This document shows positions 1-15,527 of a DNA stretch of 15,527 nt, in pieces; the first letter of the stretch is position 1; each line of letters opens with the position of its first letter. The DNA lies in the UHGV virus genome UHGV-1646100. One strand, 5' to 3'. The notes beneath the pieces are model-generated. The model was not told where the DNA came from, did no database searches, and saw only the letters and a program-made list of their open reading frames with translations. A program made the translations under genes and the position numbers. The stretch is from a virus.

Positions 1-81
1 ATCTTCGGGAGCAAATCCACAGCAAATTGCCACTCGCTTGTTAATTTCAAAATCACTTAACTGTGAATAATCCATTGTCAT
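1..81 (-). CDS. nin-region hypothetical protein, N-terminal part only (gene continues beyond window start)
   Basis: Minus-strand ATG at 79-81 overlaps the ninE stop (ATGA). Translation begins [27 protein letters not shown] and runs off the window edge. Confidence 0.45.
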
Positions 82-254
82 TTCCTCGCACGATATCTTA
101 GCCACCGGATATCCCACAGGTGGGCTGTGTAATTGAAGGTTTTTACGTCAGATTCTTTTGGGATTAGCTTGCGTTTATTTCTGGAGCGTTTCGTTGGAAG
201 GTATTTGCAGTTTTCGCAGATTATGTCGGTGATGCTTCGTCGCTGTCGTCTCAT
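78..254 (-). CDS. ninE: NinE-like protein
   Basis: ORF 78..344 contains [29 protein letters not shown]..., which I recognise as lambda NinE. Start chosen at the internal Met at 252-254, which overlaps the upstream gene stop (ATGA). Confidence 0.8.
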
Positions 255-778
255 GCAGCCCTCCTGACGCCCTGCCCGATCGCCATCAATGCCGCTTTGG
301 ATACGGTAGTAAACATCCGTCGAGGACTGATGAACGGTCGCCAAATCAGCAGCATGGAGCCTTTGCTGTTTCCCTTCTTCTCCAGCCCTGTCGATGGTTC
401 GATAAAATTAATCCGTCCATCAGTGATAATACGAACTTCGTCAACACTCTCCAGAGCCTTGCTGAACCATCCGACAGACATATCCTCTGGCACAAGCATC
501 ACTACCGTCTGTCGCTGTTGTATACACTGCTCAGCGGCTTTTTCCACCCACGGCCTGATATTGCTGTACGGTGGGTTATTCCAGATTGCACCGTGGCTTA
601 CCCACTCAGAATTGAGCGCGTCGTCGTCCTCAGTTAGCCAGTGAGCGCACAGAGCATTTTTGTCGCTCGCTGCCGAATCCAGCCAGAATCCAAACTCAAT
701 ATCCAGTGCATCAAAAAGCCAAAGCGGCGTTTGCCAGCAGTCCTTGTCGTGTGCTGGCGTATTTGATTTGATAGTCAT
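251..778 (-). CDS. phage DNA N6-adenine methyltransferase (Dam-type)
   Basis: ORF 251..838. Carries the NPPY motif typical of N6-adenine methyltransferases (…[14 protein letters not shown]…). Start placed at MTIKSN (ATG 776-778) because it overlaps the ninB stop (ATGA); the ORF could instead start at 838. Confidence 0.75.
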
Positions 779-1215
779 GCAGCCCGATCTCCCCATCGCG
801 CTTTCCATTCGAGAGCCAGTCGCGCTTCGTCTGACCACTTAACGCCACGCTCTGTACCGAATGCCTGTATAAGCTCTAATAGCTCCGCAAATTCGCTTAC
901 ACGCATCCTGCTGGTTGACTGGCCTATTACCACAAAGCCATTCCCGGCAAGGTTAGGAACAACATCCTGCTGCTTTAATGCTGCGGTAAACACACACTTC
1001 CAGCTTTCTGCATCCAGCCAGCGACCATGCCATTCAACCTGACGAGAGACGTCACCTAAGCAGGCCCATAGCTTCCTGTTTTGGTCTAAGCTGCGGTTGC
1101 GTTCCTGAATGGTTACTACGATTGGTTTGGTTGGGTCTGGAAGGATTTGCTGTACTGCGTGAATAGCGTTTTGCTGATGTGCCGGAGATCGAATTTCAAA
1201 GGTTAGTTTTTTCAT
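775..1215 (-). CDS. ninB: NinB (Orf) recombination protein
   Basis: MKKLTFEIRSPAHQQNAIHAVQQILPDPTKPIVVTIQERNRSLDQNRKLW... matches lambda NinB as I remember it. Start at the internal Met (146 aa), preceded by GGAG. Confidence 0.9.
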   Translation of the reverse strand: MKKLTFEIRSPAHQQNAIHAVQQILPDPTKPIVVTIQERNRSLDQNRKLWACLGDVSRQVEWHGRWLDAESWKCVFTAALKQQDVVPNLAGNGFVVIGQSTSRMRVSEFAELLELIQAFGTERGVKWSDEARLALEWKARWGDRAA

Positions 1216-1230
1216 GACTTCCCTCTCCCC

Positions 1231-1263
1231 CAAATAAAAAGGCCTGCGATTACCTGCAGGCCT
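1231..1263 (-). terminator. rho-independent terminator between ren and ninB (tR2-like)
   Basis: 8-bp inverted repeat aggcctgc/gcaggcct (1240-1247 and 1256-1263) with an 8-nt loop, followed on the minus strand by a U-rich run (plus strand caaataaaaa, 1231-1240). Confidence 0.7.
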
Positions 1264-1288
1264 GTTATTAGCTCAGTGATGTAGATGG

Positions 1289-1579
1289 TCATCTTTTAAC
1301 TCCATATACCGCCAATATCCGTTTCATCGTGGCACTCTGGCGACACTCCTTAAAAATCAGGTTCGTGCTCATCTTTCCTTCCCGTTCTTCCTTGGTAGCA
1401 AACCGGTAATACACCGTTCGCCAGACCTTACCTTCGATAACCAGAAGACCTGCCCGTGCCATTTTAGCCGCGGCCTGATTTATGCTGGTTACTGTTGCGC
1501 CTGTTAGCGCGGCAACGTCCGGCGCACAGAAGCTATTATGCGTCCCCAGGTAATGAATAATTGCCTCTTTGCCCGTCAT
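1289..1579 (-). CDS. ren: Ren protein
   Basis: 96-aa ORF MTGKEAIIHYLGTHNSFCAPDVAALTGATVTSINQAAAKMARAGLLVIEGK... recognised as lambda Ren. Start overlaps the P stop. Confidence 0.9.
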   Translation of the reverse strand: MTGKEAIIHYLGTHNSFCAPDVAALTGATVTSINQAAAKMARAGLLVIEGKVWRTVYYRFATKEEREGKMSTNLIFKECRQSATMKRILAVYGVKR

Positions 1580-2277
1580 ACACTTGCTCCTTTCAGTCCT
1601 AACTTAGCTTTAATTTCTGCGATCTTCGCCAGCGCCTGAACACGATTTAGAGGTCTGCCGCCCATGACAGGAAGTTGTTTTACTGGTTCAGGTATCGTCT
1701 CACCACGGTTAATTCGCGCTGTCATACAGGTCAGTTCATCGGCAGCCTTGCGTCGTAATTCCGCGTCAGTCAGCGCATTGGCCCGCATGTTCTGGTACAG
1801 GTTGGTAACCAGCCAGTAGTGCGCGTTCGATTTCCACGGATAAGACTCTGCATCCGGATACAGGCCTCGCTTCCGGCAATACTCGTAAACCATATCAACC
1901 AGCTCGCTGACGTTTGGCAGTCCGGCGATAACGGATGCTTCTTCCCGGCACCATGCAACAAACTGCCCGGGTGATGGCAGAAATGGTCGATTCTGCCGAC
2001 GGGCTACGCGCATTCCTGCGTTAACCTGTTCCATTGTGGTGATCCCGTTTTCCCGGAAAGCCAGAACCCACTGGCGGCGGATTTCGTTCAGTTCGTTCTG
2101 GTCACGGTTAGCCAGACTCGCCGGGAAAGTTGCCAGTAACTGGCTGAACACACCGTTGATGATCTGCGCTACCTGCTGTACCTGCGGCTTTTCGTCGTAC
2201 TGTTCCGGCATGTTGTTGGCGATCCGACGCATCTGCTCACGGTCAAAATTAACCATCTGTGCGGCGATGTTTTTCAT
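1576..2277 (-). CDS. P: replication protein P (helicase loader)
   Basis: 233-aa ORF MKNIAAQMVNFDREQMRRIANNMPEQYDEKPQVQQ... recognised as lambda P. Start overlaps the O stop. Confidence 0.92.
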   Translation of the reverse strand: MKNIAAQMVNFDREQMRRIANNMPEQYDEKPQVQQVAQIINGVFSQLLATFPASLANRDQNELNEIRRQWVLAFRENGITTMEQVNAGMRVARRQNRPFLPSPGQFVAWCREEASVIAGLPNVSELVDMVYEYCRKRGLYPDAESYPWKSNAHYWLVTNLYQNMRANALTDAELRRKAADELTCMTARINRGETIPEPVKQLPVMGGRPLNRVQALAKIAEIKAKLGLKGASV

Positions 2278-3173
2278 AAATCCACCCCGTAAATCCAGTC
2301 AGTGTTTGTCAGGTCGAGTTTTGGTTTGCAGGCTGTCACACCTGCCTGTTGCTTGTTACGGTTGATTTCGAGCTGGGTCCACTTGTCGCGGAGTTTGGCC
2401 GGGCTCAGCACGTTACCGGACCAGAAGTTGTCCTGGCATGCCCAGCGGAACAGTACACACATGTCGCGATGGTTACGTCCGTCACGTTCACGCATCAGGC
2501 GGATATCGTTAGCCCACCCTGCAAAATTCGGTTTTCTGGCTGATGGCGCGATGGTCTTCACCATGTCAAACATCCATTCTGCGGCGGTCAGGTCTTCTGC
2601 TGTCCCCCACTTGCTGCCGCTCTGAATTGCAGCATCCGGTTTCACCACAGAAAGGTCGTTTTCTGGCTGGTCAGAGGATTCGCCAGAATTCTCTGACGAA
2701 TAATCTTTTCTTTTTTCTTTTGTAATAGTGTCTTTTGTGTCCCCCTGTTTTGAGGGATAGCAATCCCCCAATTTGAGGGATGTTTTATCCCTCGTTTTAG
2801 GGGATTTTCCCTCGTTTTGAGGGATACACCATTCTGAGATGTTTTTATTTGGTCCAAACATGCCGCCTTGCTGCTTGATAATATTCATTCTGACGAGTTC
2901 TAACTTGGCTTCATTGCACCGTTTGACGGGTAACTTTGTAATCTCGCTAAGTTGAGAATCGGTGATTCTGTCCATTGGTTTATTCCATCCATAGGTTTTA
3001 CGCAGAATGGCAAGCAGCACTTTAAACTGTCGCTTGGTCAGATCTGCGCCTGAATAAGCCTCAAGCAGCATATTTGATAGTCTGGCGTAACCATCATCGA
3101 GATCTGCCACATTACGCTCCTGTTTGGCAAAGTTACCTCTGCAGAAGTTGAGTATTTTTGCTGTATTTGTCAT
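2274..3173 (-). CDS. O: replication initiator protein O
   Basis: 299-aa ORF MTNTAKILNFCRGNFAKQERNVADLDDGYARLSNM... recognised as lambda O. The ori iterons lie inside the gene, as in lambda. Confidence 0.92.
   Translation of the reverse strand: MTNTAKILNFCRGNFAKQERNVADLDDGYARLSNMLLEAYSGADLTKRQFKVLLAILRKTYGWNKPMDRITDSQLSEITKLPVKRCNEAKLELVRMNIIKQQGGMFGPNKNISEWCIPQNEGKSPKTRDKTSLKLGDCYPSKQGDTKDTITKEKRKDYSSENSGESSDQPENDLSVVKPDAAIQSGSKWGTAEDLTAAEWMFDMVKTIAPSARKPNFAGWANDIRLMRERDGRNHRDMCVLFRWACQDNFWSGNVLSPAKLRDKWTQLEINRNKQQAGVTACKPKLDLTNTDWIYGVDL
2690..2828 (-). other. ori-lambda-type replication origin: four iterons plus adjacent AT-rich region
   Basis: Four ~19-bp iterons, each with internal dyad symmetry, at about 2740-2759, 2764-2782, 2787-2806 and 2808-2826 (tccccctgttttgagggata, atcccccaatttgagggatg, atccctcgttttaggggatt, tccctcgttttgagggata). 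The AT-rich stretch 2690-2737 lies on the O-downstream side. Confidence 0.85.
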
Positions 3174-3205
3174 AATGACTCCTGTGGATTGATCCAGTAA
3201 TGACC

Positions 3206-3502
3206 TCAGAATTCCATCTGGATTTGTTCAGAACGCTCGGTTGCCGCCGGGCGTTTTTTATTGGTGAGTCCATCAAGCGCATACTTAAAAGCCCTGCTAA
3301 TCGGACTGATGTCTGATGCCATTCCGAAAGCACACAAGACCGAAGCAATAAATCTCCAGTCCGTTCTGCTTATCTTCGATTCATGACAGCCAATCATCTT
3401 TGCCAGACCGCGCTGGGTAATAGCTGACAGATTGATAAGTAAATCTGTTTCTGCGCGATCAACGTCACGCTGTGATAGTTTGCTGTAACTTGTTCTTTCC
3501 AT
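3206..3502 (-). CDS. cII: CII-like transcriptional activator (chimeric: non-lambda N-terminus, lambda-type C-terminus)
   Basis: 98-aa ORF whose C-terminus …LTNKKRPAATERSEQIQMEF matches the lambda CII tail as I remember it. It sits between cro and O. The N-terminal ~75 aa differ from lambda. Confidence 0.75.
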   Translation of the reverse strand: MERTSYSKLSQRDVDRAETDLLINLSAITQRGLAKMIGCHESKISRTDWRFIASVLCAFGMASDISPISRAFKYALDGLTNKKRPAATERSEQIQMEF

Positions 3503-3587
3503 TTCTTAAGATTTCCAATAGTGAATAGTTAGTTGAAAGGTATGCGTGGAAACGCATATGGCCTTAGTTGGTCAGATATCTTGGAAC

Positions 3588-3634
3588 TCGCTTTTCAGCG
3601 ACGTAGGACGAATGTCCGTTGTTACAAAGAGCGG
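3588..3634 (-). promoter_or_regulatory. nutR-like site (boxA plus boxB hairpin) downstream of cro
   Basis: On the minus strand: GCTCTTTGTAACAACG (boxA-like), then …CTACGTCGCTGAAAAGCGAG with stem UCGCU/AGCGA and loop GAAAA. A near-identical arrangement occurs upstream of the N-like gene (6269-6314). Confidence 0.6.
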
Positions 3635-3643
3635 ATCCGCTTA

Positions 3644-3859
3644 TTAAGCGGCTTTGTGTTCCGGCGGGAACACGTCATCAAGACTGACTTTTGCGCCTAA
3701 CTTGTTTAGGCACGCAACAAGAGCACGGCATGTTTTAAGGTCTGGGAAGCGACGACCAGATTCCCAATGTCCGATAGCTCCCTGTGTGCATCCAACTGCC
3801 TTAGCAAGTGTTGTTTGAGAGATATTCAGTGACTCTCGATATTTTCGTAGGTTGCTCAT
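3644..3859 (-). CDS. cro: Cro-like HTH repressor (non-lambda specificity)
   Basis: Internal Met of ORF 3644..4030 gives a 71-aa protein MSNLRKYRESLNISQTTLAKAVGCTQGAIGHWESGRRF… with an HTH motif. It is divergent from cI, has an upstream GGAGGG, and sits directly upstream of cII/O/P. Confidence 0.8.
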   Translation of the reverse strand: MSNLRKYRESLNISQTTLAKAVGCTQGAIGHWESGRRFPDLKTCRALVACLNKLGAKVSLDDVFPPEHKAA

Positions 3860-3970
3860 ATGCCCTCCATAGTAAACACGAATAAAAAAATACAATATGT
3901 ACTTTGCGAATACAAGTAAAAATACACATTGTGCATGGATGGTTCCAGTACAGAGCGTAATAATAAGGAC
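3860..3970. promoter_or_regulatory. divergent cI/cro control region (OR operators, PR, PRM)
   Basis: Intergenic region between divergent cI and cro. Candidate PR on the minus strand: -35 TTGTAT (plus 3910-3915), 17-nt spacer, -10 TATTTT (plus 3887-3892). Operator-like motif tacaatatgtacttt (3891-3905) recurs in reverse complement at the PL region. Confidence 0.6.
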
Positions 3971-4630
3971 ATGAAAATGAAATGGTATGAACTGGCTAGA
4001 TCCAGAATGAAAGAGCTCGGCATAACTCAAGAGAAGTTAGCCGAAGAGCTAGGTATGACGCAGGGTGGGATTGGACACTGGTTGCGCGGATCTCGTCATC
4101 CATCTCTTAGTGATATTGGTGTGGTGTTTAAATACCTTGGTATTGATAACATATCATTCAACCACGACGGGACATTTTCACCTGTTGGCGAATACTCATC
4201 GGCCCCAGTTAAAAAACAATATGAGTACCCTGTTTTTTCTCATGTTCAGGCTGGGATGTTCTCTCCAGAACTCAGAACCTTTACCAAAGGCGATGCGGAG
4301 AGATTGGTAAGCACAACCAAAAAAGCCAGTGACTCTGCATTCTGGCTTGAGGTTGAAGGTAACTCAATGACCGCACCAACAGGTTCCAAACCCAGCTTTC
4401 CTGACGGGATGTTAATTCTGGTTGACCCTGAGCAAGCTGTTGAGCCCGGCGATTTCTGCATAGCCAGACTTGGTGGTGATGAATTTACCTTCAAGAAACT
4501 GATCAGGGATAGCGGTCAGGTGTTTCTACAGCCACTAAACCCACAATACCCAATGATCCCATGCAATGAGAGTTGTTCCGTTGTGGGGAAAGTTATCGCC
4601 AGCCAATGGCCTGAAGAGACGTTTGGGTGA
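3971..4630 (+). CDS. cI: CI repressor (LexA-like S24 peptidase C-terminal domain, distinct N-terminal HTH)
   Basis: ORF 3929..4630. The C-terminal half (…[26 protein letters not shown]…[90 protein letters not shown]) matches lambda CI as I remember it, including the catalytic Ser and Lys. The N-terminal HTH (…[10 protein letters not shown]…) is different. Start ATG 3971 is preceded by AAGGA. Confidence 0.85.
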
Positions 4631-4669
4631 TGAAACCACTTTTATCTACAATTTACAGGGCGGTAAACA

Positions 4670-5227
4670 TTGGCAAAAATAGATGATTATCAGCCAAGCC
4701 AAGTAGAAGTTGATAAAGTACTTTATTGTAAAAAAATAGTTAACTTTTCTGGCGTTAAATGGAAACAGAAACCAAGTCGCTCTGATATGTGGCTACAAGC
4801 CCATATCATCCCCTTGGATGAGGATTGTATACCTATACAAGGGCTAAAGTTTGAACTGAAATGGAAACCAGATCAGGATTCAGAACCTGATGACCCGATT
4901 TCTTACCCTAAAATAAATATTATTGCTTTCTATCATAACAAGAGGGTTTTCGCGGTAGATACCTATCACTTTGACAAACACACGAATAGTTACAAGGTCG
5001 ATCATCCGAAGTACCAAGATATCATTTACGGTGCTCACTACCATGTATACTATGAAGAAGCTGGATACTATAGTGATAGAATAGCGTTTCCAATCGAAGA
5101 TGACATAAACCCAGATGACCTGGTAGGGTATTGGAATTACTTCTGTAAACATCTGAACATAACTTACTCTGGGAGAATACCTTTACCGCTTGAAGATGAG
5201 TCGGGGCAAATGGGGTTTGGAATATGA
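4670..5227 (+). CDS. hypothetical protein, first gene of a two-gene cassette in the rexA position (function unknown)
   Basis: 185-aa ORF directly downstream of cI. No similarity to any protein I recognise. AT-rich. The start is a TTG (4670) with AGGG about 9 nt upstream; the first in-frame ATG is at 4787. The stop overlaps the next gene's ATG (ATGA). Confidence 0.6.
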   Translation: MAKIDDYQPSQVEVDKVLYCKKIVNFSGVKWKQKPSRSDMWLQAHIIPLDEDCIPIQGLKFELKWKPDQDSEPDDPISYPKINIIAFYHNKRVFAVDTYHFDKHTNSYKVDHPKYQDIIYGAHYHVYYEEAGYYSDRIAFPIEDDINPDDLVGYWNYFCKHLNITYSGRIPLPLEDESGQMGFGI

Positions 5228-5976
5228 TGTGCTCAACAGTGATCTCACAACTAGGTTTCGAATGCCATCCAATAGGCAAGACCTTGAGAATTATCAGTCC
5301 ATTCACTTACTGTGATGATGGAGAGCATGTCGGTGCCTTTATCCGTGAAGTCAATGGTAGGTATTTAGTTAGTGACAGATGCGATGCCTTAATGAATATG
5401 GAGGCAAGAGGGATCTCGCTTACCAAAAAACGACTTGATGAGATACGACAATTACTGCTTAAAGAAGGCGCAGAACTCAATGCTCGAGGAGAAATCATTG
5501 CTTGGGCAACAGAAAAGGATGTCGGTGCGATTACATCGAACATAATTAGAGCTGGTATACTCGCATCAACTTTGTCGTTAGACTGGTATCAGCCAGTTCA
5601 AGCTGAAAAGTTTGAAAGTATGGTTATTGATTATCTATATCACACAGAGCTTAGAGACGCACTTTCTCTTCGTGAAAACGTATATGGCTTGAGTGGACAT
5701 CAAATTACCGTCCCTGTAACAATAAAAACCGACATACCTAAATACGTTTTTACATCAAGCGTGAAACACGGAGGAAGCTGGAATAGTGCTTACTCATTGC
5801 TTGGGAAACTAATTGATCTTAAAGCTTCAAGTGAGGAGTATAACAACAGATTTGTTGTTATAGACAGCGAAGCAATTGGTGATCAAATGCAACAACTCTC
5901 CTTACTCTTCCATGAATCAAGCCAAGTTCTACCATTCTCCAAAAGAGAGACTTGGGTTAAGAGACTTGCAGCATAA
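5224..5976 (+). CDS. hypothetical protein, second gene of the two-gene cassette in the rexB position (function unknown)
   Basis: 250-aa ORF, translationally coupled to the upstream gene (ATGA overlap at 5224-5227) and followed by a strong terminator. No recognisable motifs such as Walker A. Confidence 0.65.
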   Translation: MMCSTVISQLGFECHPIGKTLRIISPFTYCDDGEHVGAFIREVNGRYLVSDRCDALMNMEARGISLTKKRLDEIRQLLLKEGAELNARGEIIAWATEKDVGAITSNIIRAGILASTLSLDWYQPVQAEKFESMVIDYLYHTELRDALSLRENVYGLSGHQITVPVTIKTDIPKYVFTSSVKHGGSWNSAYSLLGKLIDLKASSEEYNNRFVVIDSEAIGDQMQQLSLLFHESSQVLPFSKRETWVKRLAA

Positions 5977-5980
5977 TACA

Positions 5981-6007
5981 ACCCGGCCTCAGCGCCGGGT
6001 TTTCTTT
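5981..6007 (+). terminator. rho-independent terminator ending the cI operon
   Basis: Stem acccggc/gccgggt (5981-5987 and 5994-6000) with loop ctcagc, followed by tttcttt. Confidence 0.8.
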
Positions 6008-6187
6008 GCCTCACGTTCGCCCACCTAAAAACACATAACCAATTATATTTATTGAAAAATAAATAGATGCAACCCACTAAACCACGCAATTCTGATCTCT
6101 CCTTACATCGCCGAGGCAATACATCCACGCTAAAAAACAACACTATTAAATACAAAGCGTTATAAAAAACCACGCCAACTTACAACA

Positions 6188-6225
6188 AATTGTATTGATC
6201 TTGTAAAGTACATATCGTACTATTT
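6188..6225 (+). promoter_or_regulatory. PL-like promoter with OL operator
   Basis: -35 TTGATC (6195-6200), 17-nt spacer, -10 TACTAT (6218-6223). The operator-like motif aaagtacatatcgtac (6205-6220) shares a 15-nt core with the PR region in reverse complement. Confidence 0.55.
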
Positions 6226-6268
6226 AACCGTCAGCAGGACGCTGGAAGCCAAATGGAACAGACTGGCA

Positions 6269-6314
6269 GGCTCTTTAAACAACGTCGACTCTCGACTACG
6301 TGGCTGAAAAGCCA
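6269..6314 (+). promoter_or_regulatory. nutL-like site (boxA plus boxB hairpin)
   Basis: GGCTCTTTAAACAACG (boxA-like), then …CTACGTGGCTGAAAAGCCAG with stem UGGCU/AGCCA and loop GAAAA. Matches the nutR candidate nearly base for base. Lies upstream of the N-like gene. Confidence 0.6.
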
Positions 6315-6412
6315 GATCACCCAACCACATAAGCTGTGGGATGCAATGCCGAAGCAACCGTCTCAGGAGGAGCTTCGAGATTGCATCGCCAAAGTTTATT
6401 CGGGAGGAATCC

Positions 6413-6685
6413 ATGTCCAGAAAAACAGAATTTAAAGGCACCGCAGCTTCTCGCCGTAGAGCTCGTCGCGCAAATCTGCAAAGTCAGGAGGCGATCAGCT
6501 CCGACAAGCTACACAGGCCAACCCCTTCACGAGTGGTCTTGCAATGCAAGCTCAAACCAGCAATGAGAGCAGAAGTGATAACTCTGACAACGTTGACCAG
6601 AAAATATGAAGGTTCAACTTGTCTTCCGAACGTAGCTCTTTACGCGGCAGGCTACCGGAAATCAAAACAACTGACGGCGAGATGA
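6413..6685 (+). CDS. N: N-like transcription antitermination protein (arginine-rich motif)
   Basis: Internal Met of ORF 6341..6685, preceded by GGGAGGA. 90-aa protein MSRKTEFKGTAASRRRARRANLQ… with an N-terminal Arg-rich motif. The C-terminus …NVALYAAGYRKSKQLTAR resembles P22 gene 24-type N proteins as I remember them. Position after nutL fits. Confidence 0.75.
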   Translation: MSRKTEFKGTAASRRRARRANLQSQEAISSDKLHRPTPSRVVLQCKLKPAMRAEVITLTTLTRKYEGSTCLPNVALYAAGYRKSKQLTAR

Positions 6686-6701
6686 TAAATTCATTTGCTA
6701 A

Positions 6702-7283
6702 TTACTTGTTTTTGCCATGCTTATCCTGAGCGATAAGTTCATCCATAAGGCTGTCTGCCTTCCCGGCAAACCTAATGTAGCACTCATGTCTATAGCTTTC
6801 AGGGATAACGAAACGGTCGGTATCAGGATATCCAACAGCAGGAGGCCTTCGAACGAGGAGTCCTTTTTTGAGCAATGAAATTGATTCATGAGCGCCCTTT
6901 TCCGTTTGTAGCTGGTTATTAGCGGCTACAGCGAATGCCAAATACGCTCTTTCTCCAAGAGTTAACGAATCAAACAAATCTTGCACATATTTTTCTTCTT
7001 TAGATTTGCGCTTCTGAGCAGCGAATACCTCAATTCTTTCAGTCACAGCGTGATAAGCGGAATTAACAACGCCGTTAAGCACATAGCTAACGCAAAACAA
7101 CAGGATGTAATACATCCAGTAATGAGGAAGGATTTCTGGACTATGCAGGTTTATCCATTCTTTTACGCTTACCGGCATAACAATAATCAATATGATCAGG
7201 ATGATTAGCATATGAATCAACTGTTTAAGTGTCATTCCTTGCAGGAAAAAATGCATTAGTTCCTGCCACCATGAGTTGTTCAT
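6702..7283 (-). CDS. sieB: superinfection exclusion protein B (SieB)
   Basis: 193-aa ORF MNNSWWQELMHFFLQGMTLKQLIHMLIILIILIIVMPVSVKEW… with an N-terminal membrane segment; recognised as SieB of P22/lambda type. It is antisense to the PL operon between N and ral. Confidence 0.8.
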   Translation of the reverse strand: MNNSWWQELMHFFLQGMTLKQLIHMLIILIILIIVMPVSVKEWINLHSPEILPHYWMYYILLFCVSYVLNGVVNSAYHAVTERIEVFAAQKRKSKEEKYVQDLFDSLTLGERAYLAFAVAANNQLQTEKGAHESISLLKKGLLVRRPPAVGYPDTDRFVIPESYRHECYIRFAGKADSLMDELIAQDKHGKNK

Positions 7284-7426
7284 CGGCGTTTCTCTTTTGC
7301 TCTCTGTAGGGGTGAATAGAGTTTATCCGATTTCTCGTTGTAGGGGTACACGAGAACCACCGAGCCTGATGTGGTTAAAAGACAGGCACAATCTTTACTA
7401 CCGCAATCCACTATTTAAGGTGATAT

Positions 7427-7513
7427 ATGGAAGAAGAATTTGAAGAGTTCGAAGAGCATCCTCAAGATGTGATGGAACAATACCAGGACTATCCGTATGA
7501 CTACGACTATTGA
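7427..7513 (+). CDS. small acidic ORF (lambda orf28-like position)
   Basis: 28 codons, MEEEFEEFEEHPQDVMEQYQDYPYDYDY. Overlaps the ral start. Not in the ORF track because it is under 60 aa. Low confidence that it is expressed. Confidence 0.3.
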   Translation: MEEEFEEFEEHPQDVMEQYQDYPYDYDY

Positions 7514-7697
7514 TACAAATCAATGGTGTGGACAATTCAAACGATGCAATGGATGCAAGCTGCAATCGGAATGCATGGTTAAGCCTGAAGAAATGTTTCC
7601 TGTAATGGAAGATGGGAAATATGTCGATAAATGGGCAATACGAACGACGGCAATGATTGCCAGAGAACTTGGTAAACAGAACAACAAAGCTGCCTGA
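7497..7697 (+). CDS. ral: Ral restriction-alleviation protein
   Basis: 66-aa ORF MTTTIDTNQWCGQFKRCNGCKLQSECMVKPEEMFPVMEDGKYVDKWAIRTTAMIARELGKQNNKAA recognised as lambda Ral. Confidence 0.9.
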   Translation: MTTTIDTNQWCGQFKRCNGCKLQSECMVKPEEMFPVMEDGKYVDKWAIRTTAMIARELGKQNNKAA

Positions 7698-7833
7698 TAG
7701 TGGCCTTTATTTTTGGCATAAATAACAGAATAAACACTGCACTGTGTATTCATTCCAACGAGTGAATACACGGAGCAATGTCGCTCGTAACTAAACAGGA
7801 GCCGACTTGTTCTGATTATTGGAAATCTTCTTT

Positions 7834-7860
7834 GCCCTCCAGTGTGAGGGCGATTTTTTA
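7834..7860 (+). terminator. rho-independent terminator between ral and ea10
   Basis: Stem gccctc/gagggc (7834-7839 and 7846-7851) with loop cagtgt, followed by gatttttta. Confidence 0.7.
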
Positions 7861-7879
7861 TCTATGAGGATATGAATAG

Positions 7880-8248
7880 ATGTCAAACATCAAAAAATAC
7901 ATCATTGATTACGACTGGAAAGCATCAATAGAAATTGAAATTGACCATGACGTAATGACAGAGGAAAAACTTCACCAGATTAATAATTTCTGGTCAGACT
8001 CTGAATACCGACTCAATAAACACGGCTCTGTATTAAATGCTGTATTAATCATGCTGGCGCAACATGCTCTGCTTATAGCAATTTCAAGCGACTTAAATGC
8101 ATATGGTGTTGTGTGTGAGTTCGACTGGAATGATGGAAATGGTCAGGAAGGATGGCCTCCAATGGATGGTAGTGAAGGAATAAGAATTACCGATATCGAT
8201 ACATCAGGAATATTTGATTCAGATGATATGACTATCAAGGCCGCCTGA
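7880..8248 (+). CDS. ea10: Ea10-like protein
   Basis: 122-aa ORF MSNIKKYIIDYDWKASIEIEIDHDVMTEEKLHQINNFWSDSEYRLNKHGSVLNAVLIMLAQH… recognised as lambda Ea10. Confidence 0.85.
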   Translation: MSNIKKYIIDYDWKASIEIEIDHDVMTEEKLHQINNFWSDSEYRLNKHGSVLNAVLIMLAQHALLIAISSDLNAYGVVCEFDWNDGNGQEGWPPMDGSEGIRITDIDTSGIFDSDDMTIKAA

Positions 8249-8320
8249 GCGCGGCGTTACCGCATACCAATTACGCTTCACTCGAGGCGTTTTTCGTTAT
8301 GTATAAATAAGGAGCACACC

Positions 8321-8485
8321 ATGCAATATGCCATTGCAGGGTGGCCTGTTGCTGGCTGCCCTTCCGAATCTTTACTTGAACGAATCACCCGTAAATTACG
8401 TGACGGATGGAAACGCCTTATCGACATACTTAATCAGCCAGGAGTCCCAAAAAATGGATCAAACAATTATGGCTATCCAGACTAA
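8321..8485 (+). CDS. cIII: CIII (FtsH inhibitor that stabilises CII)
   Basis: 54-codon ORF not in the track (under 60 aa): [54 protein letters not shown]. Recognised as lambda CIII. TAAGGAG lies 7 nt upstream. Confidence 0.9.
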   Translation: MQYAIAGWPVAGCPSESLLERITRKLRDGWKRLIDILNQPGVPKNGSNNYGYPD

Positions 8486-8597
8486 ATTCACTATCGCCAC
8501 TTTTATTGGCGATGAAAAGATGTTTCGTGAGGCCGTCGACGCTTATAAAAAATGGATATTAATACTGAAACTGAGATCAAGCAAAAGCATTCACTAA
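8454..8597 (+). CDS. kil: Kil (host-killing, cell-division inhibitor)
   Basis: Internal Met of track ORF 8328..8597 gives a 47-aa protein [47 protein letters not shown], recognised as lambda Kil. CCAGGAG lies upstream. Overlaps the 3' end of cIII in another frame, as in lambda. Confidence 0.85.
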
Positions 8598-8672
8598 CCC
8601 CCTTTCCTGTTTTCCTAATCAGCCTGGCATTTCGCGGGCGATATTTTCACAGCCATTTTCAGGAGTTCAGCC

Positions 8673-8969
8673 ATGAACGCTTATTACATTCAGGATCGTC
8701 TTGAGGCTCAGAGCTGGGCGCGTCACTACCAGCAGATCGCCCGTGAAGAGAAAGAGGCAGAACTGGCAGACGACATGGAAAAAGGCCTGCCCCAGCACCT
8801 GTTTGAATCGCTATGCATCGATCATTTACAACGCCACGGGGCCAGCAAAAAAGCCATTACCCGTGCGTTTGATGACGATGTTGAGTTTCAGGAGCGCATG
8901 GCAGAACACATCCGGTACATAGTTGAAACCATTGCTCACCATCAGGCTGATATTGATTCAGAGGTATAA
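8673..8969 (+). CDS. gam: Gam (RecBCD inhibitor), short GamS-type form
   Basis: 98-aa [59 protein letters not shown]… recognised as lambda GamS. AGGAG lies upstream. Confidence 0.92.
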
Positions 8970-8974
8970 AACGG

Positions 8975-9760
8975 ATGAGTACAGCACTCGCAACGCTGGC
9001 AGGGAAGCTGGCTGAACGTGTCGGCATGGATTCTGTCGACCCACAGGAACTGATCACCACTCTTCGCCAGACGGCATTTAAAGGTGATGCCAGCGATGCG
9101 CAGTTCATCGCATTGTTGATCGTCGCCAACCAGTACGGCCTTAATCCGTGGACGAAAGAAATTTACGCCTTCCCTGATAAGCAGAACGGCATTGTTCCGG
9201 TGGTGGGCGTTGATGGCTGGTCCCGCATCATCAATGAAAACCAGCAGTTTGATGGTATGGACTTTGAGCAGGACAATGAATCATGTACATGCCGGATTTA
9301 CCGCAAAGACCGCAATCATCCGATCTGCGTTACCGAGTGGATGGATGAATGCCGCCGCGAACCATTCAAAACCCGCGAAGGCAGAGAAATCACGGGGCCG
9401 TGGCAGTCGCATCCCAAACGGATGTTACGGCATAAAGCCATGATTCAGTGTGCCCGTCTCGCCTTCGGATTTGCTGGTATCTATGACAAGGATGAAGCCG
9501 AGCGCATTGTCGAAAATACCGCATACACTGCAGAACGTCAGCCGGAACGCGACATCACTCCGGTTAACGATGAAACCATGCAGGAGATTAACACTCTGCT
9601 GATCGCCCTGGATAAAACATGGGATGACGACTTATTGCCGCTCTGTTCCCAGATATTTCGCCGCGACATTCGCGCATCGTCAGAACTGACACAGGCCGAA
9701 GCAGTGAAAGCTCTTGGATTCCTGAAACAGAAAGCCACTGAGCAGAAGGTGGCAGCATGA
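8975..9760 (+). CDS. bet: Bet (Red-beta single-strand annealing recombinase)
   Basis: 261-aa [62 protein letters not shown]… recognised as lambda Bet. Confidence 0.95.
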
Positions 9761-10437
9761 CACCGGACATTATCCTGCAGCGTACCGGGATCGACGTGAG
9801 AGCTGTCGAACAGGGGGATGATGCATGGCACAAATTACGGCTCGGCGTCATCACCGCTTCAGAAGTTCACAACGTGATAGCAAAACCCCGCTCCGGAAAG
9901 AAATGGCCTGACATGAAAATGTCCTACTTCCACACCCTGCTTGCTGAGGTTTGCACCGGTGTGGCTCCGGAAGTTAACGCTAAGGCGCTGGCTTGGGGAA
10001 AACAGTACGAGAACGACGCCAGAGCCCTGTTTGAGTTTACTTCCGGCGTGAATGTTACTGAATCCCCGATCATCTATCGCGACGAAAGTATGCGCACCGC
10101 CTGCTCTCCCGATGGTTTATGCAGTGACGGCAACGGCCTTGAGCTGAAATGCCCGTTTACCTCCCGGGATTTCATGAAGTTCCGGCTCGGTGGTTTCGAG
10201 GCCATAAAATCGGCTTACATGGCCCAGGTGCAGTACAGCATGTGGGTGACGCGAAAAGATGCCTGGTACTTTGCCAACTATGACCCGCGTATGAAGCGTG
10301 AAGGACTGCATTATGTCGTGGTTGAGCGGGATGAAAAGTACATGGCGAGTTTTGACGAGATGGTGCCGGAGTTCATCGAAAAAATGGACGAGGCACTGGC
10401 TGAAATTAGTTTTGTATTTGGGGAGCAATGGCGATGA
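9757..10437 (+). CDS. exo: Exo (lambda 5'-3' exonuclease, Red-alpha)
   Basis: 226-aa [68 protein letters not shown]… recognised as lambda Exo. Start overlaps the bet stop. Confidence 0.95.
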
Positions 10438-10616
10438 CGCATCCTCACGATAATATCCGGGTAGGCGCGATCACTTTCGTCTACTCCGTTACAAAGCGAG
10501 GCTGGGTATTTCCCGGCCTTTCTGTTATCAGAAATCCACTGAAAGCACAGCGGCTGGCTGAGAAGATAAATAATAAACGGGAGGCGGTATGCACAAAGCA
10601 TCTCCTGTTGAGTTAA
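10434..10616 (+). CDS. lambda orf60a-like hypothetical protein
   Basis: The ATG at 10434 overlaps the exo stop (ATGA) and gives exactly 60 aa: [60 protein letters not shown]. Confidence 0.75.
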
Positions 10617-10780
10617 GAACGAGTATTGAGATGGCACATAGCCTTGCTCAAATTGGAGTCAGGTTTGTGCCAATACCAGTAGAAACAGACGAAGAATTTC
10701 ATACGTTAGCCGCATCCCTTTCACAAAAGCTGGAAATGATGGTGGCGAAAGCAGAAGCAGATGAGAGAGACCAGGTATGA
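10589..10780 (+). CDS. lambda orf63-like hypothetical protein
   Basis: 63-aa [66 protein letters not shown]. Position and length match lambda orf63. Confidence 0.75.
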   Translation: MHKASPVELRTSIEMAHSLAQIGVRFVPIPVETDEEFHTLAASLSQKLEMMVAKAEADERDQV

Positions 10781-10860
10781 CAACCACTGAATGCATTTTT
10801 CTGGCAGCGGGCTTCATATTCTGTGTGCTTATGCTTGCCGACATGGGGCTTGTTCAGTGA
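10777..10860 (+). CDS. putative small hydrophobic peptide (27 aa)
   Basis: ATG 10777 overlaps the orf63 stop (ATGA). Encodes MTTTECIFLAAGFIFCVLMLADMGLVQ, a single predicted transmembrane-like segment. Its stop overlaps a GTG start of the next ORF (GTGA). Not in the ORF track (under 60 aa). Confidence 0.35.
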   Translation: MTTTECIFLAAGFIFCVLMLADMGLVQ

Positions 10861-11072
10861 CACCTCAGCAAGAAAACGCCCTTCGCAGCATTGCCCGTCA
10901 GGCTAATTCTGAAATCAAAAAAGCCAGACAGCAGTTTCCGGATAAAAACGTCGATGACATTTGCCGTAGCGTACTAAAGAAGCACCGCGAAACGGTAACG
11001 CTGATGGGATTCACACCGACTCATTTAAGCCTGGCGATCGGCATGTTAAACGGCGTCTTTAAGGAACGGTGA
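10857..11072 (+). CDS. hypothetical protein (lambda orf61-region)
   Basis: C-terminal part of track ORF 10791..11072. Start is uncertain: GTG at 10857 is coupled to the upstream small ORF, or ATG at 10791. Protein …VTPQQENALRSIARQANSEIKKARQQFPDKNVDDICRSVLKKHRETVTLMGF…. Confidence 0.5.
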   Translation: MTPQQENALRSIARQANSEIKKARQQFPDKNVDDICRSVLKKHRETVTLMGFTPTHLSLAIGMLNGVFKER

Positions 11073-11170
11073 ACATGAAAAGCAAAATCATCAGGGAGCT
11101 ACAGGCTCCTTTTTTATTATTCGCATTCACCCTCAAGCGTATTAACCAACAATTCAGGGATTAATGAAAG

Positions 11171-11392
11171 ATGGCGGACATCATTGATTCAGCATCAGAA
11201 ATTGAAGAATTACAGCGCAATACAGCAATAAAAATGCGTCGTCTGAACTACCAGACTATATCCGCCACTCATTGTTGTGAGTGTGGCGATCCCATAGATG
11301 AACGAAGACGCCTGGTCGTTCAGGGTTGTCGGACTTGTGCAAGTTGCCAGGAGGATCTGGAGCTTATCAGTAAACAGAGAGGTTCGAAGTGA
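11171..11392 (+). CDS. TraR/DksA-family C4 zinc-finger protein (lambda Orf73-like)
   Basis: 73-aa ORF with CxxC…CxxC (…ATHCCECGDPIDERRRLVVQGCRTCASCQ…), typical of TraR-like RNA-polymerase-binding proteins. Confidence 0.8.
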   Translation: MADIIDSASEIEELQRNTAIKMRRLNYQTISATHCCECGDPIDERRRLVVQGCRTCASCQEDLELISKQRGSK

Positions 11393-12153
11393 GCGAAATT
11401 AACTATCAGGCACTGCGTGAAGCGGCAGAAAAAGCAACGTGTGGTGAGTGGTCGCTCGAATATGGAGAGAGCCGATTTGATGGTGATTATGCGCTAATTC
11501 ATCGTGAAGTTGCTGGATATATTCCCATTTGCAGAATTGAAGGAGCGCATCCAGAAAGCGGTTTCGATGAAGATTTCCAAATGGAACAGCAGGCCAATGC
11601 TGAATTCATCGCCGCAGCCAATCCGGCTACTGTGCTGGCACTGCTGGATGAACGGGAAAGAAACCAGCAATACATAAAACGCCGCGACCAGGAGAACGAG
11701 GATATTGCTCTTACTGTTGGGAAGCTGAGAGTTGAGCTTGAGGAGACAAAATCAAAACTCAACGAGCAGCGTGAGTATTACGAAGGTGTTATCTCGGATG
11801 GGGGTAAGCGTATTGCTGAACTGGAGAAAAGCGAAGAGCAACTCATTAACGAGCGTGACCATGCTGAATCTGCTTTAGCAGATATGTACTTTGCAGCAAC
11901 CGGGGATGAGCCGGAGTGGAGCAACTGGTTCGGCTTTTCAGATGCTGTCGATGCCGTGGTTGACAGAATTGCTGATTTAGAAGCTAAACAGCCATCACCA
12001 GTAGTACCGGAAGGACTGGTTAAAGCAGTGCGCTTCTATGAACAGGTTAAGCGTGAAAATCCACCAGTCGAAACAGAGGCATGGAAAGACGCTATTGACT
12101 GGGTGCTCAAAGAGTCTTGTCAGGCTGTAAACATTGATACCAATGGAGATTGA
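11389..12153 (+). CDS. Ea22-like family protein (coiled-coil centre)
   Basis: 254-aa ORF MSEINYQALREAAEKATCGEWSLEYGESRFDGDYALIHREVAGYIPICRIEGAHPESGF… with a central charged, coiled-coil-like segment. Position between orf73 and xis. Family assignment is from memory only. Confidence 0.55.
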   Translation: MSEINYQALREAAEKATCGEWSLEYGESRFDGDYALIHREVAGYIPICRIEGAHPESGFDEDFQMEQQANAEFIAAANPATVLALLDERERNQQYIKRRDQENEDIALTVGKLRVELEETKSKLNEQREYYEGVISDGGKRIAELEKSEEQLINERDHAESALADMYFAATGDEPEWSNWFGFSDAVDAVVDRIADLEAKQPSPVVPEGLVKAVRFYEQVKRENPPVETEAWKDAIDWVLKESCQAVNIDTNGD

Positions 12154-12154
12154 T

Positions 12155-12409
12155 ATGAGCACTTTTACCGACAAAGAACTGATTAAAGAAATCAAAGAGC
12201 GTATCAGCAGTTTGGATGTGCGAGACAATGTTGAGCGCCGGGCTTATGAAATTGCTCTGGCATCGCTGGAAGAGAATCCGGTGGCATGGCTGCATTCAGA
12301 CAATGGCTTAGGTATTCCGGCAATAACGAGGAGTAAAAACATTGCTGACAGTTGGTTATCAAAGGGTTGGTATGTTCAGCCGCTATATATGCCAAGCCAG
12401 TGCCAGTAG
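12155..12409 (+). CDS. hypothetical protein, Ea22-like N-terminal module (possibly the 5' part of a frame-disrupted gene)
   Basis: ATG 12155 with GGAG 6 nt upstream. Protein MSTFTDKELIKEIKERISSLDVRDNVERRAYEIALASLEENPVAWL… shares the …IALASLE… module with ORF 13168..13908. It overlaps the next ORF, which is in the -1 frame. Confidence 0.5.
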   Translation: MSTFTDKELIKEIKERISSLDVRDNVERRAYEIALASLEENPVAWLHSDNGLGIPAITRSKNIADSWLSKGWYVQPLYMPSQCQ

Positions 12410-12960
12410 TACCTGAAGAAAAACCAATGCCTAACCCTCTTAGCATGTACGCGGTCGATGCTGTTGCCGCTATTGCAGAGGTGAGAGGCTGGAACGCCTG
12501 CCGCGCGGCTATGCTTCATGCCGGAAACTTTCGGGAAAACGCGAATTCGTCAACCAATAATTTTCGGGAAATTTCGGAAACGTCAACCAACTCTCCGGTA
12601 ATTCCTGGTGAGGTGTTGTCCGCAATCCTGAAATTTGCCAGAGTTCGTGCTGATTTCGATGATTTTGACGGCGACAGGCGAGGTATCGGTGATTGTCTGG
12701 ATGAGGCTGAGCAAGAGCTTATCGTTACCATTAACAAATATGCCAGTCAGTTGGCAGCAGAACCGATAGCGACTAATGACGTTCGAGAGCAGCAGACAGC
12801 CGTTCCGCCAGTTCCTGTAATACAGGCTGATGTCGCGCAAGCAATTGAAAATCTCAGGCAGAAGTTAGTGGAATGCAATCGCTATAACTACTGCGCAGAT
12901 GCAGTTAAGGGCGTAGAGGATGCCTGCCACGCTGCCATGCTTCAGGGAAAAAGAGAGTGA
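12352..12960 (+). CDS. hypothetical protein (Ea22-like C-terminal modules; start uncertain)
   Basis: 202-aa ORF containing an NSPVIPGEV module also present in ORF 13168..13908, and an internal tandem peptide repeat NFRENANSSTN / NFREISETSTN. It may be the downstream part of a frameshifted gene. Confidence 0.5.
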   Translation: MVIKGLVCSAAIYAKPVPVVPEEKPMPNPLSMYAVDAVAAIAEVRGWNACRAAMLHAGNFRENANSSTNNFREISETSTNSPVIPGEVLSAILKFARVRADFDDFDGDRRGIGDCLDEAEQELIVTINKYASQLAAEPIATNDVREQQTAVPPVPVIQADVAQAIENLRQKLVECNRYNYCADAVKGVEDACHAAMLQGKRE

Positions 12961-12961
12961 T

Positions 12962-13171
12962 ATGGCTATTGCCGCAAGTTACACCATGCATCTCTATTGT
13001 GATTGTCGCCAGTGTACGGAAGGTGTATATCCAGTGCCAGACTTCGGTGAGTATATCGGTACGTCATGGTCTGGTTGTGCAAAAGAGGCCCGTAAAGACG
13101 GGTGGCGAATAAGCAAAGACAAAACACGTACTTTTGCGCCCGGGCATAAAGTTTTGAGGATTAACACATGA
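12962..13171 (+). CDS. small cysteine-rich hypothetical protein
   Basis: Internal Met of track ORF 12920..13171, immediately after the upstream stop. 69 aa, MAIAASYTMHLYCDCRQCTEGVYPVPDFGEYIGTSWSGCAKEARKDGWRISKDK… Its stop overlaps the next ATG (ATGA). Confidence 0.5.
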   Translation: MAIAASYTMHLYCDCRQCTEGVYPVPDFGEYIGTSWSGCAKEARKDGWRISKDKTRTFAPGHKVLRINT

Positions 13172-13908
13172 CCACTATTACCAAAGAACGTATTGAATTG
13201 TTCATTAAAAATCCGCTTGAAAACGGGCTTACTCGTGGCGAACAAATGGAACTAGCACGAATTGCACTGGCATCACTGGAACGCGAACAGATTCGCCACG
13301 AGCATGCCAAATGGTCTGACTCCACATTTGGCTGCGTTGGCCCCATTGGTCCACTGAAACACCTCTCAAAAGAGGCACTGGAAGCCGCAGCCGAACCAGA
13401 CGATCTTAGCGAGTGGGCTGATATGCAGTTTCTGTTGTGGGATGCACAGCGCCGTGCTGGCATCAGCGATGCTGAAATTACCGTTGCTATGGAAGATAAA
13501 TTGAAGATCAACATGGAGCGCCAGTGGCCTGAGCCAAAAGATGGTGAGCCTCGCTTGCACATTAAAGAACCCGGCAACTCTCCGGTAATTCCGGATGGTT
13601 TATCCACGGTATGCGCTGAGGCTTATCAGGTTGTAGGAGTTATGGCAGATGCGCTTGGTGTATTCGGTGATGCAGCAGTACAGAAAGTTCTGGATAACCT
13701 GTCACAGCAAAAACTTGTTCACAGAGATGTGCTGCCGTTCTCGCTTCCGGTAACTCCGGATGGTTGGGTTATGGTTCCTAAACAGGTAACGCCGGAAATC
13801 AGCAACGCGATAAACGTTGTGGGTCAACGCTGTACATGCGGAAATTGCTCTCAGCGGTTGTGGGATTTATTACTCGACGCCACACAGCAAGGAGTTAACC
13901 GTGGCTAA
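13168..13908 (+). CDS. Ea22-like family protein
   Basis: 246-aa ORF MTTITKERIELFIKNPLENGLTRGEQMELARIALASLEREQIRHEHAKW… Shares the IALASLE and NSPVIPDG modules with upstream paralogues. Confidence 0.55.
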   Translation: MTTITKERIELFIKNPLENGLTRGEQMELARIALASLEREQIRHEHAKWSDSTFGCVGPIGPLKHLSKEALEAAAEPDDLSEWADMQFLLWDAQRRAGISDAEITVAMEDKLKINMERQWPEPKDGEPRLHIKEPGNSPVIPDGLSTVCAEAYQVVGVMADALGVFGDAAVQKVLDNLSQQKLVHRDVLPFSLPVTPDGWVMVPKQVTPEISNAINVVGQRCTCGNCSQRLWDLLLDATQQGVNRG

Positions 13909-14185
13909 CCTGCAACTTGCCGTTAAAGGTGAATACTTCGATGCCATGATTCGCGGAGAGAAAACGGAAGAGTATCGCCTGTGTAATGACTACTGGAAAA
14001 AGCGCCTCGTTAACCGTAAGCATGACCGCCTGATTATCACAAAGGGATATCCGAAGCGCGACGATTCCAGCCGCAGAGTTGATGTTCCGTATGACGGATA
14101 TGAAGTGAAGACAATCACACATCCGCACTTCGGTGATAAACCGGTAAAGGTATACGCGATAAAGGTAAATATCGGCACTGAATAA
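13901..14185 (+). CDS. ASCH-domain-like protein
   Basis: GTG 13901 with AAGGAG 7 nt upstream; alternatively TTG at 13817 as in the ORF track. Protein (M)ANLQLAVKGEYFDAMIRGEKTEEYRLCNDYWKKRL… resembles the ASCH/PUA-like N-terminal signature. Confidence 0.5.
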   Translation: MANLQLAVKGEYFDAMIRGEKTEEYRLCNDYWKKRLVNRKHDRLIITKGYPKRDDSSRRVDVPYDGYEVKTITHPHFGDKPVKVYAIKVNIGTE

Positions 14186-14210
14186 CAATCCGCACAACAC
14201 AAGGTCAAGA

Positions 14211-14450
14211 ATGTTCAGAGTGATTTACCCTAACACCTGGTACGTCGACCACCACGGCACTCCCTGCAAAATCCTGCGTTCCACTCACAACAAAGTTCAC
14301 TACATCCGAAAAGGCAGAACATGTATCGCCAGCATGTTCCGCTTTAATCATGACTTTGAACCTGTGAATAAAGCTGACGCAGATCGGATAGCTGAAGAGA
14401 TCGAAACAGCAGAACACATTAAGAAGTTACGTGCCATACGCAGGAAATAG
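14211..14450 (+). CDS. hypothetical protein
   Basis: 79-aa ORF MFRVIYPNTWYVDHHGTPCKILRSTHNKVHYIRKGRTCIASMFRFNHDFEPVNKADADRIAEEIETAEHIKKLRAIRRK. Co-directional with xis/int. No recognisable motif. Confidence 0.45.
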   Translation: MFRVIYPNTWYVDHHGTPCKILRSTHNKVHYIRKGRTCIASMFRFNHDFEPVNKADADRIAEEIETAEHIKKLRAIRRK

Positions 14451-14589
14451 AAAAATTGATAAATTCAATACTGCATTTCTCAGCATTAAATTTATCTCTA
14501 TGACCAGTCAAGAGATGTACCTGCCATGAGCTTAATATCATGTCAGATATATCGGTCACAAACTCCCTCAGCAGCTAAGAGGAGGACAA

Positions 14590-14826
14590 ATGTCTCGACT
14601 AATCACTTTACAGGACTGGGCTAAAGAAGAATTTGGGGACTTAGCACCAAGTGAGCGAGTTCTGAAAAAATACGCGCAAGGGAAAATGATGGCCCCACCC
14701 GCTATAAAAGTTGGTCGCTACTGGATGATTGACCGAAATTCCCGTTTTGTAGGAACGCTTGCAGAACCGCAACTCCCAATAAACGCAAACCCAAAACTCC
14801 AACGGATAATCGCTGATGGCTGCTAG
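14590..14826 (+). CDS. xis: excisionase (Xis-like DNA-binding protein)
   Basis: 78-aa ORF MSRLITLQDWAKEEFGDLAPSERVLKKYAQGKMMAPPAIKVGRYWMIDRNSRFVG… with a lambda/HK022 Xis-like pattern. Strong AAGAGGAGG RBS. Its stop overlaps the int start. Confidence 0.7.
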   Translation: MSRLITLQDWAKEEFGDLAPSERVLKKYAQGKMMAPPAIKVGRYWMIDRNSRFVGTLAEPQLPINANPKLQRIIADGC

Positions 14827-15464
14827 ACCCCGATCTCACAAAATCTCTATACCCAATTTATATTGCAAATTAGATAAGCGAACCGGAAAGGTATATTGGC
14901 AATACAAACATCCACTATCCGGTCGTTTTCATAGCTTAGGAACTGATGAGAATGAAGCAAAACAAGTTGCTACTGAAGCAAATACCATTATTGCTGAACA
15001 ACGTACCCGACAAATATTAAGCGTCAATGAGCGTCTAGAAAGAATGAAAGGCAGGCGCTCAGACATTACGGTGACAGAATGGCTTGATAAATATATTTCT
15101 ATCCAGGAGGACAGGCTGCAACATAATGAACTAAGACCCAACTCCTATCGGCAAAAAGGCAAACCCATTCGTCTTTTCCGTGAGCATTGTGGAATGCAAC
15201 ACCTCAAGGATATTACCGCACTTGATATTGCCGAAATAATTGATGCTGTAAAGGCTGAAGGTCATAACAGGATGGCGCAAGTCGTGAGAATGGTGTTGAT
15301 CGACGTCTTCAAAGAAGCACAACACGCAGGACATGTTCCGCCAGGATTTAACCCAGCGCAGGCAACAAAACAACCGCGAAATCGAGTAAACCGCCAAAGA
15401 TTATCACTGCCCGAATGGCAGGCAATATTTGACAGCGTAAGCAGACGGCAGCCCTATTTAAAAT
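14816..15464 (+). CDS. int: tyrosine integrase, N-terminal part (truncated by the contig end and adapter)
   Basis: Open frame from ATG 14816: MAARPRSHKISIPNLYCKLDKRTGKVYWQYKHPLSGRFHSLGTDENEAKQVATEANTIIAEQRTRQ…, typical of the N-terminal arm-binding and core-binding region of lambda-family integrases. No stop before the adapter at 15465. Confidence 0.75.
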
Positions 15465-15527
15465 CTGTCTCTTATACACATCTCCGAGCCCACGAGACCG
15501 TACTAGATCTCGTATGCCGTCTTCTGC
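15465..15527. other. Illumina Nextera adapter sequence (library artefact, not biological)
   Basis: ctgtctcttatacacatct (Tn5 mosaic end) + ccgagcccacgagac + an 8-nt index (cgtactag) + atctcgtatgccgtcttctgc (P7 primer region). Confidence 0.9.

Follow-up and report, generated by a model that had tools for sequence, protein, structure and literature searches.

Adapter contamination of sequence assemblies leaves a characteristic signature, in which adapter sequence occurs in forward orientation at contig ends and as its reverse complement at contig starts, and contigs are broken at these positions (PMC11536531). The case described here resembles those documented by the Moeller lab (BMC Genomics 2024; PMC11536531) in three respects: a forward adapter at a contig end, a break of the contig at that point, and the false truncation of a gene. 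The two differ in the adapter involved, since the adapter sought there was the TruSeq universal one, AGATCGGAAGAG, whereas the adapter found here is of the Nextera/Tn5 type, and in the unusual length of the adapter stretch that survives, which runs through the index and into P7. The closest described relative of the genomic sequence next to the adapter is Escherichia phage ev017 (Jouyvirus ev017; LR597643.1 / NC_049948.1), and identical prophages of the ev017 type adjoin icd in E. coli ATCC 25922, ABU 83972, 1105, D8, and others. The attachment site of phage 21 and e14 also lies in icd, and the lambdoid prophage NC-SV, from strain NC101, has been described as occupying the phage 21 site of this gene (PMC12803456).

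We analyzed a stretch of 15,527 nt from virus genome UHGV-1646100 (the window, referring throughout to its full length). The last 63 nt of the window are almost certainly an artefact of read-through into Nextera adapter and part of no organism. This is a known kind of technical artefact and carries no biological novelty, and no feature of the sequence speaks against this reading. What precedes it covers the early-left, immunity, and replication genes of a common lambdoid E. coli prophage of the ev017 type, whose copies in complete genomes adjoin icd. The features discussed below are collected in Table 1.

Table 1. Positions of genomic and adapter-derived features in the window.
Feature	Coordinates	Strand	Sequence, match or remark
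Part of another ninX allele (codons 13-25), free of adapter	1..38	-	Collinearity with the references begins at 39
cI-like repressor gene	3929..4630		
First gene of an overlapping pair, 185 aa	4670..5227	+	PDC-M24 component M24A, E = 4.8e-4 (partial)
Second gene of the pair, 250 aa (DUF1828)	5224..5976	+	PDC-M24 component M24B, E = 4.7e-10 (full length)
Lambda cIII thermoregulator element	8308..8366	+	Rfam RF01804, full length, 88.5 bits
Excisionase gene, 78 aa, intact, overlapping the start of int	14590..14826	+	Pfam PF07825 Exc, E = 6.7e-6
int (lambda-type tyrosine integrase), genuine 5' part: codons 1-216 plus one base, of 380 codons	14816..15464	+	
Genome/adapter junction, the putative Tn5 cut site of a read-through library fragment	15464..15465		Alignment to three references
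Tn5 mosaic end (ME), 19 nt	15465..15483	+	CTGTCTCTTATACACATCT; matched exactly here only
Adapter-B-specific part of the Nextera read-2 transposase adapter, 15 nt	15484..15498	+	CCGAGCCCACGAGAC
i7 sample index, 8 nt, Nextera N702	15499..15506	+	CGTACTAG; index table of PMC7589761
P7 flow-cell sequence, first 21 of 24 nt	15507..15527	+	ATCTCGTATGCCGTCTTCTGC; TTG absent

Base for base, window 15465-15527 consists of the ME, the remainder of the read-2 adapter, an i7 index, and a partial P7 sequence. The terminal sequence, with a slash at the boundary between genome and adapter, is ...CAGCCCTATTTAAAAT / CTGTCTCTTATACACATCTCCGAGCCCACGAGACCGTACTAGATCTCGTATGCCGTCTTCTGC. The sequence-only reading had named the same components, and the string proved to lie exactly at the coordinates given there. 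That reading had further taken the string for untrimmed synthetic library sequence, and this is borne out by published oligonucleotides: PMC6994069 gives Tn5MErev as CTGTCTCTTATACACATCT and Tn5ME-B as GTCTCGTGGGCTCGGAGATGTGTATAAGAGACAG, while the Nextera XT index table of PMC7589761 gives N702 as CGTACTAG, contained within the primer CAAGCAGAAGACGGCATACGAGAT-CTAGTACG-.... When reverse-complemented, the first 34 nt of the tail (15465-15498) give exactly Tn5ME-B, which is the Nextera read-2 adapter GTCTCGTGGGCTCGGAGATGTGTATAAGAGACAG. The same 34-mer occurs in 111 papers, among them PMC6460022, which lists it with its read-trimming parameters; the P7 portion is the reverse complement of CAAGCAGAAGACGGCATACGAGAT minus its first 3 nt. 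The 19-nt ME remains unique in the window when up to three mismatches are allowed, and it was matched in 0 of 200 dinucleotide-preserving shuffles. When the full pattern was searched (ME, CCGAGCCCACGAGAC, any 8 nt, ATCTCGTATGCCGTCTTCTGC), an exact match was found at the terminal 63 nt, with order and orientation as in a library molecule. For the 55 specified bases of this pattern, counting both strands of the window, the chance expectation is 2.4e-29. A search of the window for 12-mers of Nextera read 1, P5, and TruSeq found none elsewhere.

Alignment to complete genomes locates the end of the genomic sequence. Window 14400-15527 matches 1,653 of 5,426 complete E. coli genomes (1,595 of them covering at least 80% of the query), and all of the matches listed, whether from E. 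coli genomes or from phage records, stop at query position 1065, corresponding to window position 15464. E. coli 1105, ATCC 25922, and phage ev017 are identical to the window through 15464 and diverge from 15465 onward, the references running on with GCGGGATGCTACTTGCTC (GCGGGATGCTAC...) where the window has CTGTCTCTTATA.... Because the genomic base at 15465 is G and the first adapter base is C, the position of the junction is unambiguous. The exact genome/adapter junction sequence has no match in IMG/VR. It had been proposed that raw reads joining this string to genomic DNA in many independent molecules would overturn an adapter origin; such an observation would refute nothing, since reads that run through into the adapter show the same thing.

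The same string recurs in records which have no relation to this prophage. None of the 5,426 complete E. coli genomes contains the 63-mer, yet it matches 45 records of the phage collection from unrelated hosts, namely Bacillus, Listeria, Streptococcus, Pseudomonas, Acinetobacter, Paenibacillus, Salmonella, Staphylococcus, and E. coli. Of the 40 matches listed, ten are internal, and most are no more than ~150 nt away from the end of the record. Full-length matches at 100% identity carry the same index, and lower identities would be expected from other indexes. The 34-mer, searched separately, is present in at least 120 IMG/VR contigs, where 123 of the 124 occurrences sampled face outward, with no more than 42 nt (median 14) to the end of the sequence; this agrees with the orientation and position rule of PMC11536531. 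The octamers which follow the 34-mer in IMG/VR vary, some being Nextera i7 indexes of PMC7589761, and the commonest index in the sampled contigs is CGTACTAG (13 cases). A large share of the IMG/VR contigs bearing the 34-mer comes from a single dataset, 3300045988, and in one contig the 34-mer is internal, at 3701-3734 (1 of 124 occurrences).

Nextera tails were also observed in phage genomes of the public databases, RefSeq included. They lie at 28-90 in NC_049948.1/LR597643.1, 46708-46770 in LR597652.1, 107523-107585 in MT584805.1, 76697-76759 in NC_054919.1, and 110018-110080 in MK327937.1. In two of these the tail is well inside the record, beginning at 110018 of 170182 in MK327937.1 and at 107523 of 146370 in MT584805.1, and some internal tails lie under annotated coding sequences, including a 'DNA polymerase' and a 'baseplate hub subunit and tail lysozyme'. 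The record of Lambda_ev110 ends in a 63-mer identical to that of the window, N702 index included.

We propose that read-through of a short library fragment gave rise to the tail. The DNA would have been prepared as a Nextera (Tn5 tagmentation) library under sample index N702, and at least one fragment would have ended at a Tn5 cut between 15464 and 15465 and been shorter than the read length. Read 1, beginning at the adapter-A side, would then overrun the short insert and continue through ME, adapter B, the i7 index, and P7. As this expected order is the order found on the plus strand, 15464 would be the Tn5 cut site of a short N702 fragment. If the reads were untrimmed or incompletely trimmed, the assembler would have extended the contig into the adapter. 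Extension may have stopped because adapter k-mers, being common to reads from everywhere, made the graph unresolvable, or else because the true continuation was uncovered by reads; the P7 sequence, 3 nt short of complete, fits a contig end at 15527.

Three other origins of the tail were weighed against read-through. Transposon insertions into prophage genes occur, and the first 19 nt of the tail resemble a Tn5 end, so that a natural Tn5/IS50 copy in int, with the window ending just inside the element, might be considered. The 19-mer, however, has 0 mismatches to the synthetic hyperactive ME, as against 3 to the outside end CTGACTCTTATACACAAGT and 4 to the inside end CTGTCTCTTGATCAGATCT, and the 44 nt that follow are an Illumina oligonucleotide with a catalogue index and not IS50. 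Together with the absence of the 63-mer from complete E. coli genomes, this leaves a natural insertion with a vanishingly small probability, and we regard the sequence as having refuted it. Transposons built for laboratory use have this mosaic end too, which speaks for an engineered ME-ended element (EZ-Tn5 type), or another laboratory construct carrying these oligonucleotides, physically present in int of the sequenced strain. Such an element is nevertheless extremely improbable, for the succession of read-2 adapter, i7 index, and P7 is that of a finished library molecule and not of a mutagenesis transposon, and the same arrangement stands at the ends of at least 120 unrelated metagenome-derived viral contigs. 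It was rejected on the sequence and on the absence of the 63-mer from finished E. coli genomes.

The adapter might instead have been internal to a longer chimeric contig, in which two unrelated pieces were joined through adapter sequence and from which the window was cut inside the adapter. Precedents exist in public records, in one of the 124 IMG/VR occurrences and in several GenBank phage genomes. A chimera is improbable here, for the window breaks off with 3 nt of P7 still to come, a typical place for a contig to end, and 123 of the 124 sampled IMG/VR cases are terminal. A chimeric contig would itself be an artefact, and int is falsely truncated in either case.

The gene which runs into the adapter belongs to the lambda-type tyrosine integrases, and its copy in the window is incomplete for technical reasons. 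In a one-piece BLAST alignment, the int region is 100.0% identical to the listed E. coli genomes and to phage ev017 up to 15464, and the 216 aa encoded in the window are the same, residue for residue, as the first 216 of the 380-aa integrase in the identical prophages. Relative to these, 494 nt of int (164 codons and the stop) are missing. The reading frame enters the adapter directly, as the sequence-only reading had described, and continues in it with no stop, giving ...RRQPYLK / SVSYTHLRAHETVLDLVCRLL and thereby 21 false residues. The conclusion of that reading that int is artificially truncated and lacks its 3' end also stands: the cut falls after codon 216 of 380, and nearly all of the catalytic domain PF00589 is lost. 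Pfam identifies Arm-DNA-bind_1 (PF09003) at residues 1-71 (E = 8.2e-29), along with a weak central domain, and finds no match to PF00589 within the window-encoded 216 aa, whereas in the 380-aa Int of an identical prophage PF00589 spans residues 200-367 (E = 7.8e-24). By comparison with these prophages, int appears to be complete in nature (380 aa) and to be shortened here solely by assembly. The gene that overlaps the start of int is annotated as an excisionase in the matching genomes as well.

The region beyond the window can be described from the same genomes. In E. coli ATCC 25922 and 1105, the 3' end of icd lies 113 nt after int and is followed by rluE and nudJ, and a third, otherwise different prophage shows the same adjacency between a 380-aa int and icd. 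Free phage ev017 and the 1105 lysogen are identical for 277 nt past the int stop and unrelated thereafter, and this stretch of identity includes the last 164 nt of icd. Since the end of icd is identical in phage and lysogen, the phage carries a replacement icd 3' end. As icd comes after int wherever identical prophages were seen in complete genomes, the missing end of the window is predictable, and would comprise the phage 21/e14 attachment site in icd; comparison with these prophages places the predicted prophage/chromosome junction inside icd, ~771 nt past 15464. It had been noted from the window that attP is missing, which is correct, attP lying outside it. The accompanying statement that the prophage boundary cannot be inferred holds for the window taken alone but not when the identical prophages at icd are consulted. 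In the adjacency of int to icd and in the phage-borne icd 3' end, both seen in genomes identical to the window, the reference prophages resemble the class of phage 21, e14, and NC-SV, as the prophage of the window is predicted to do. The differences from that class are that the attachment site is outside the window and that the full-length Int of the identical prophages is only 60% identical to the e14 IntE. Prophages which integrate in icd have been reported to encode a C0293-like sRNA, svsR (PMC12803456). When C0293 was aligned locally to the window, its top scores were 20-22, which did not exceed those of shuffled queries (mean 21.7, maximum 27).

Apart from its two ends, the window is a faithful copy of the ev017-type prophage. 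BLAST aligns window 39-15464 in one piece, at 100.0% identity, with a dozen complete E. coli chromosomes among the matches listed, as well as with two phage records of ev017 and one of PhiR57_1. Compared base by base with ev017 and with E. coli 1105, the same interval shows 0 indels and 1 substitution over 15,426 positions. The gene order common to the window and the ev017 type is ninE, dam, ninB, ren, P, O, cII, cro, cI, two morons, the N region, sieB, ral, cIII, kil, gam, bet, exo, the ea genes, xis, and int; the window departs from it in stopping before the end of int, with all that lies beyond absent, and in carrying another ninX allele at its left end. The sole substitution, at 10712 (G versus A), results in T42A in a 63-aa DUF1382 protein. 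As the variant protein occurs in 40,898 index blocks of public assemblies, being widespread in other lambdoid prophages, 10712 represents a common natural allele and gives no sign of error.

PGAP annotates pseudogenes in E. coli 1105 and ATCC 25922 at positions equivalent to window 12155-12606 ('frameshifted; incomplete') and 13168-13293 ('incomplete'). The window is the same as E. coli 1105 at both, and these are therefore features shared within the lineage and not assembly errors. An earlier warning, that other apparent frameshifts in the window could be errors of sequencing or assembly, is thus not sustained: 39-15464 has no indel relative to two independent records. By these checks, the remainder of the contig can be relied on.

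At the left end, the first 38 nt depart from the ev017-type references. Window 1-94 is identical to the ninX allele of E. coli WP3-W18, and a 56-nt block at 39-94, which spans the start of ninX, is identical in both ninX alleles. The exact sequence of window 1-200 is absent from the 5,426 complete E. coli genomes (best 98.5%) and from 50,697 phage records (best 97.5%). Two technical origins were considered for this end and rejected: an adapter, as no adapter 12-mers were found, and an inverted-repeat assembly artefact, as there are no inverted repeats of 20 nt or more. The segment 1-38, identical to the WP3-W18 allele, is a genuine alternative ninX allele. The joint at 38/39 may be truly mosaic, or the assembly may have switched from one co-resident lambdoid prophage to another across the 56-nt repeat. 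Were the ninX joint genuine and the true sequence different from the references just past 15464, for example through a rearrangement or insertion in int that brought assembly to a halt and left the adapter as the tail of the last read, the window would represent a new mosaic variant of the ev017 type. We consider this combination unlikely, and if true it would still be ordinary lambdoid mosaicism.

Two side features of the window were recorded. The overlapping genes of 4670-5976 lie between the cI-like repressor gene and the N region, which is the position of rexAB in lambda, and they resemble the PADLOC candidate defence system PDC-M24 (Table 1). Judged from this similarity, they may be a defence pair encoded by the prophage. 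The lambda cIII thermoregulator element is the only Rfam match at the gathering threshold in the window.

The significance of the finding lies solely in data hygiene and quality control. The 63 nt are to be trimmed, and the 21 residues encoded by the adapter (SVSYTHLRAHETVLDLVCRLL) are to be kept out of protein databases. Deposited phage genomes, RefSeq entries among them, carry the same tail, which in some cases lies beneath annotated genes. For this prophage, the partial int should not be annotated as truncated or degraded, nor be read as a sign of a defective prophage, and calls of completeness and of attachment sites for the contig should make use of the identical full-length prophages at icd.
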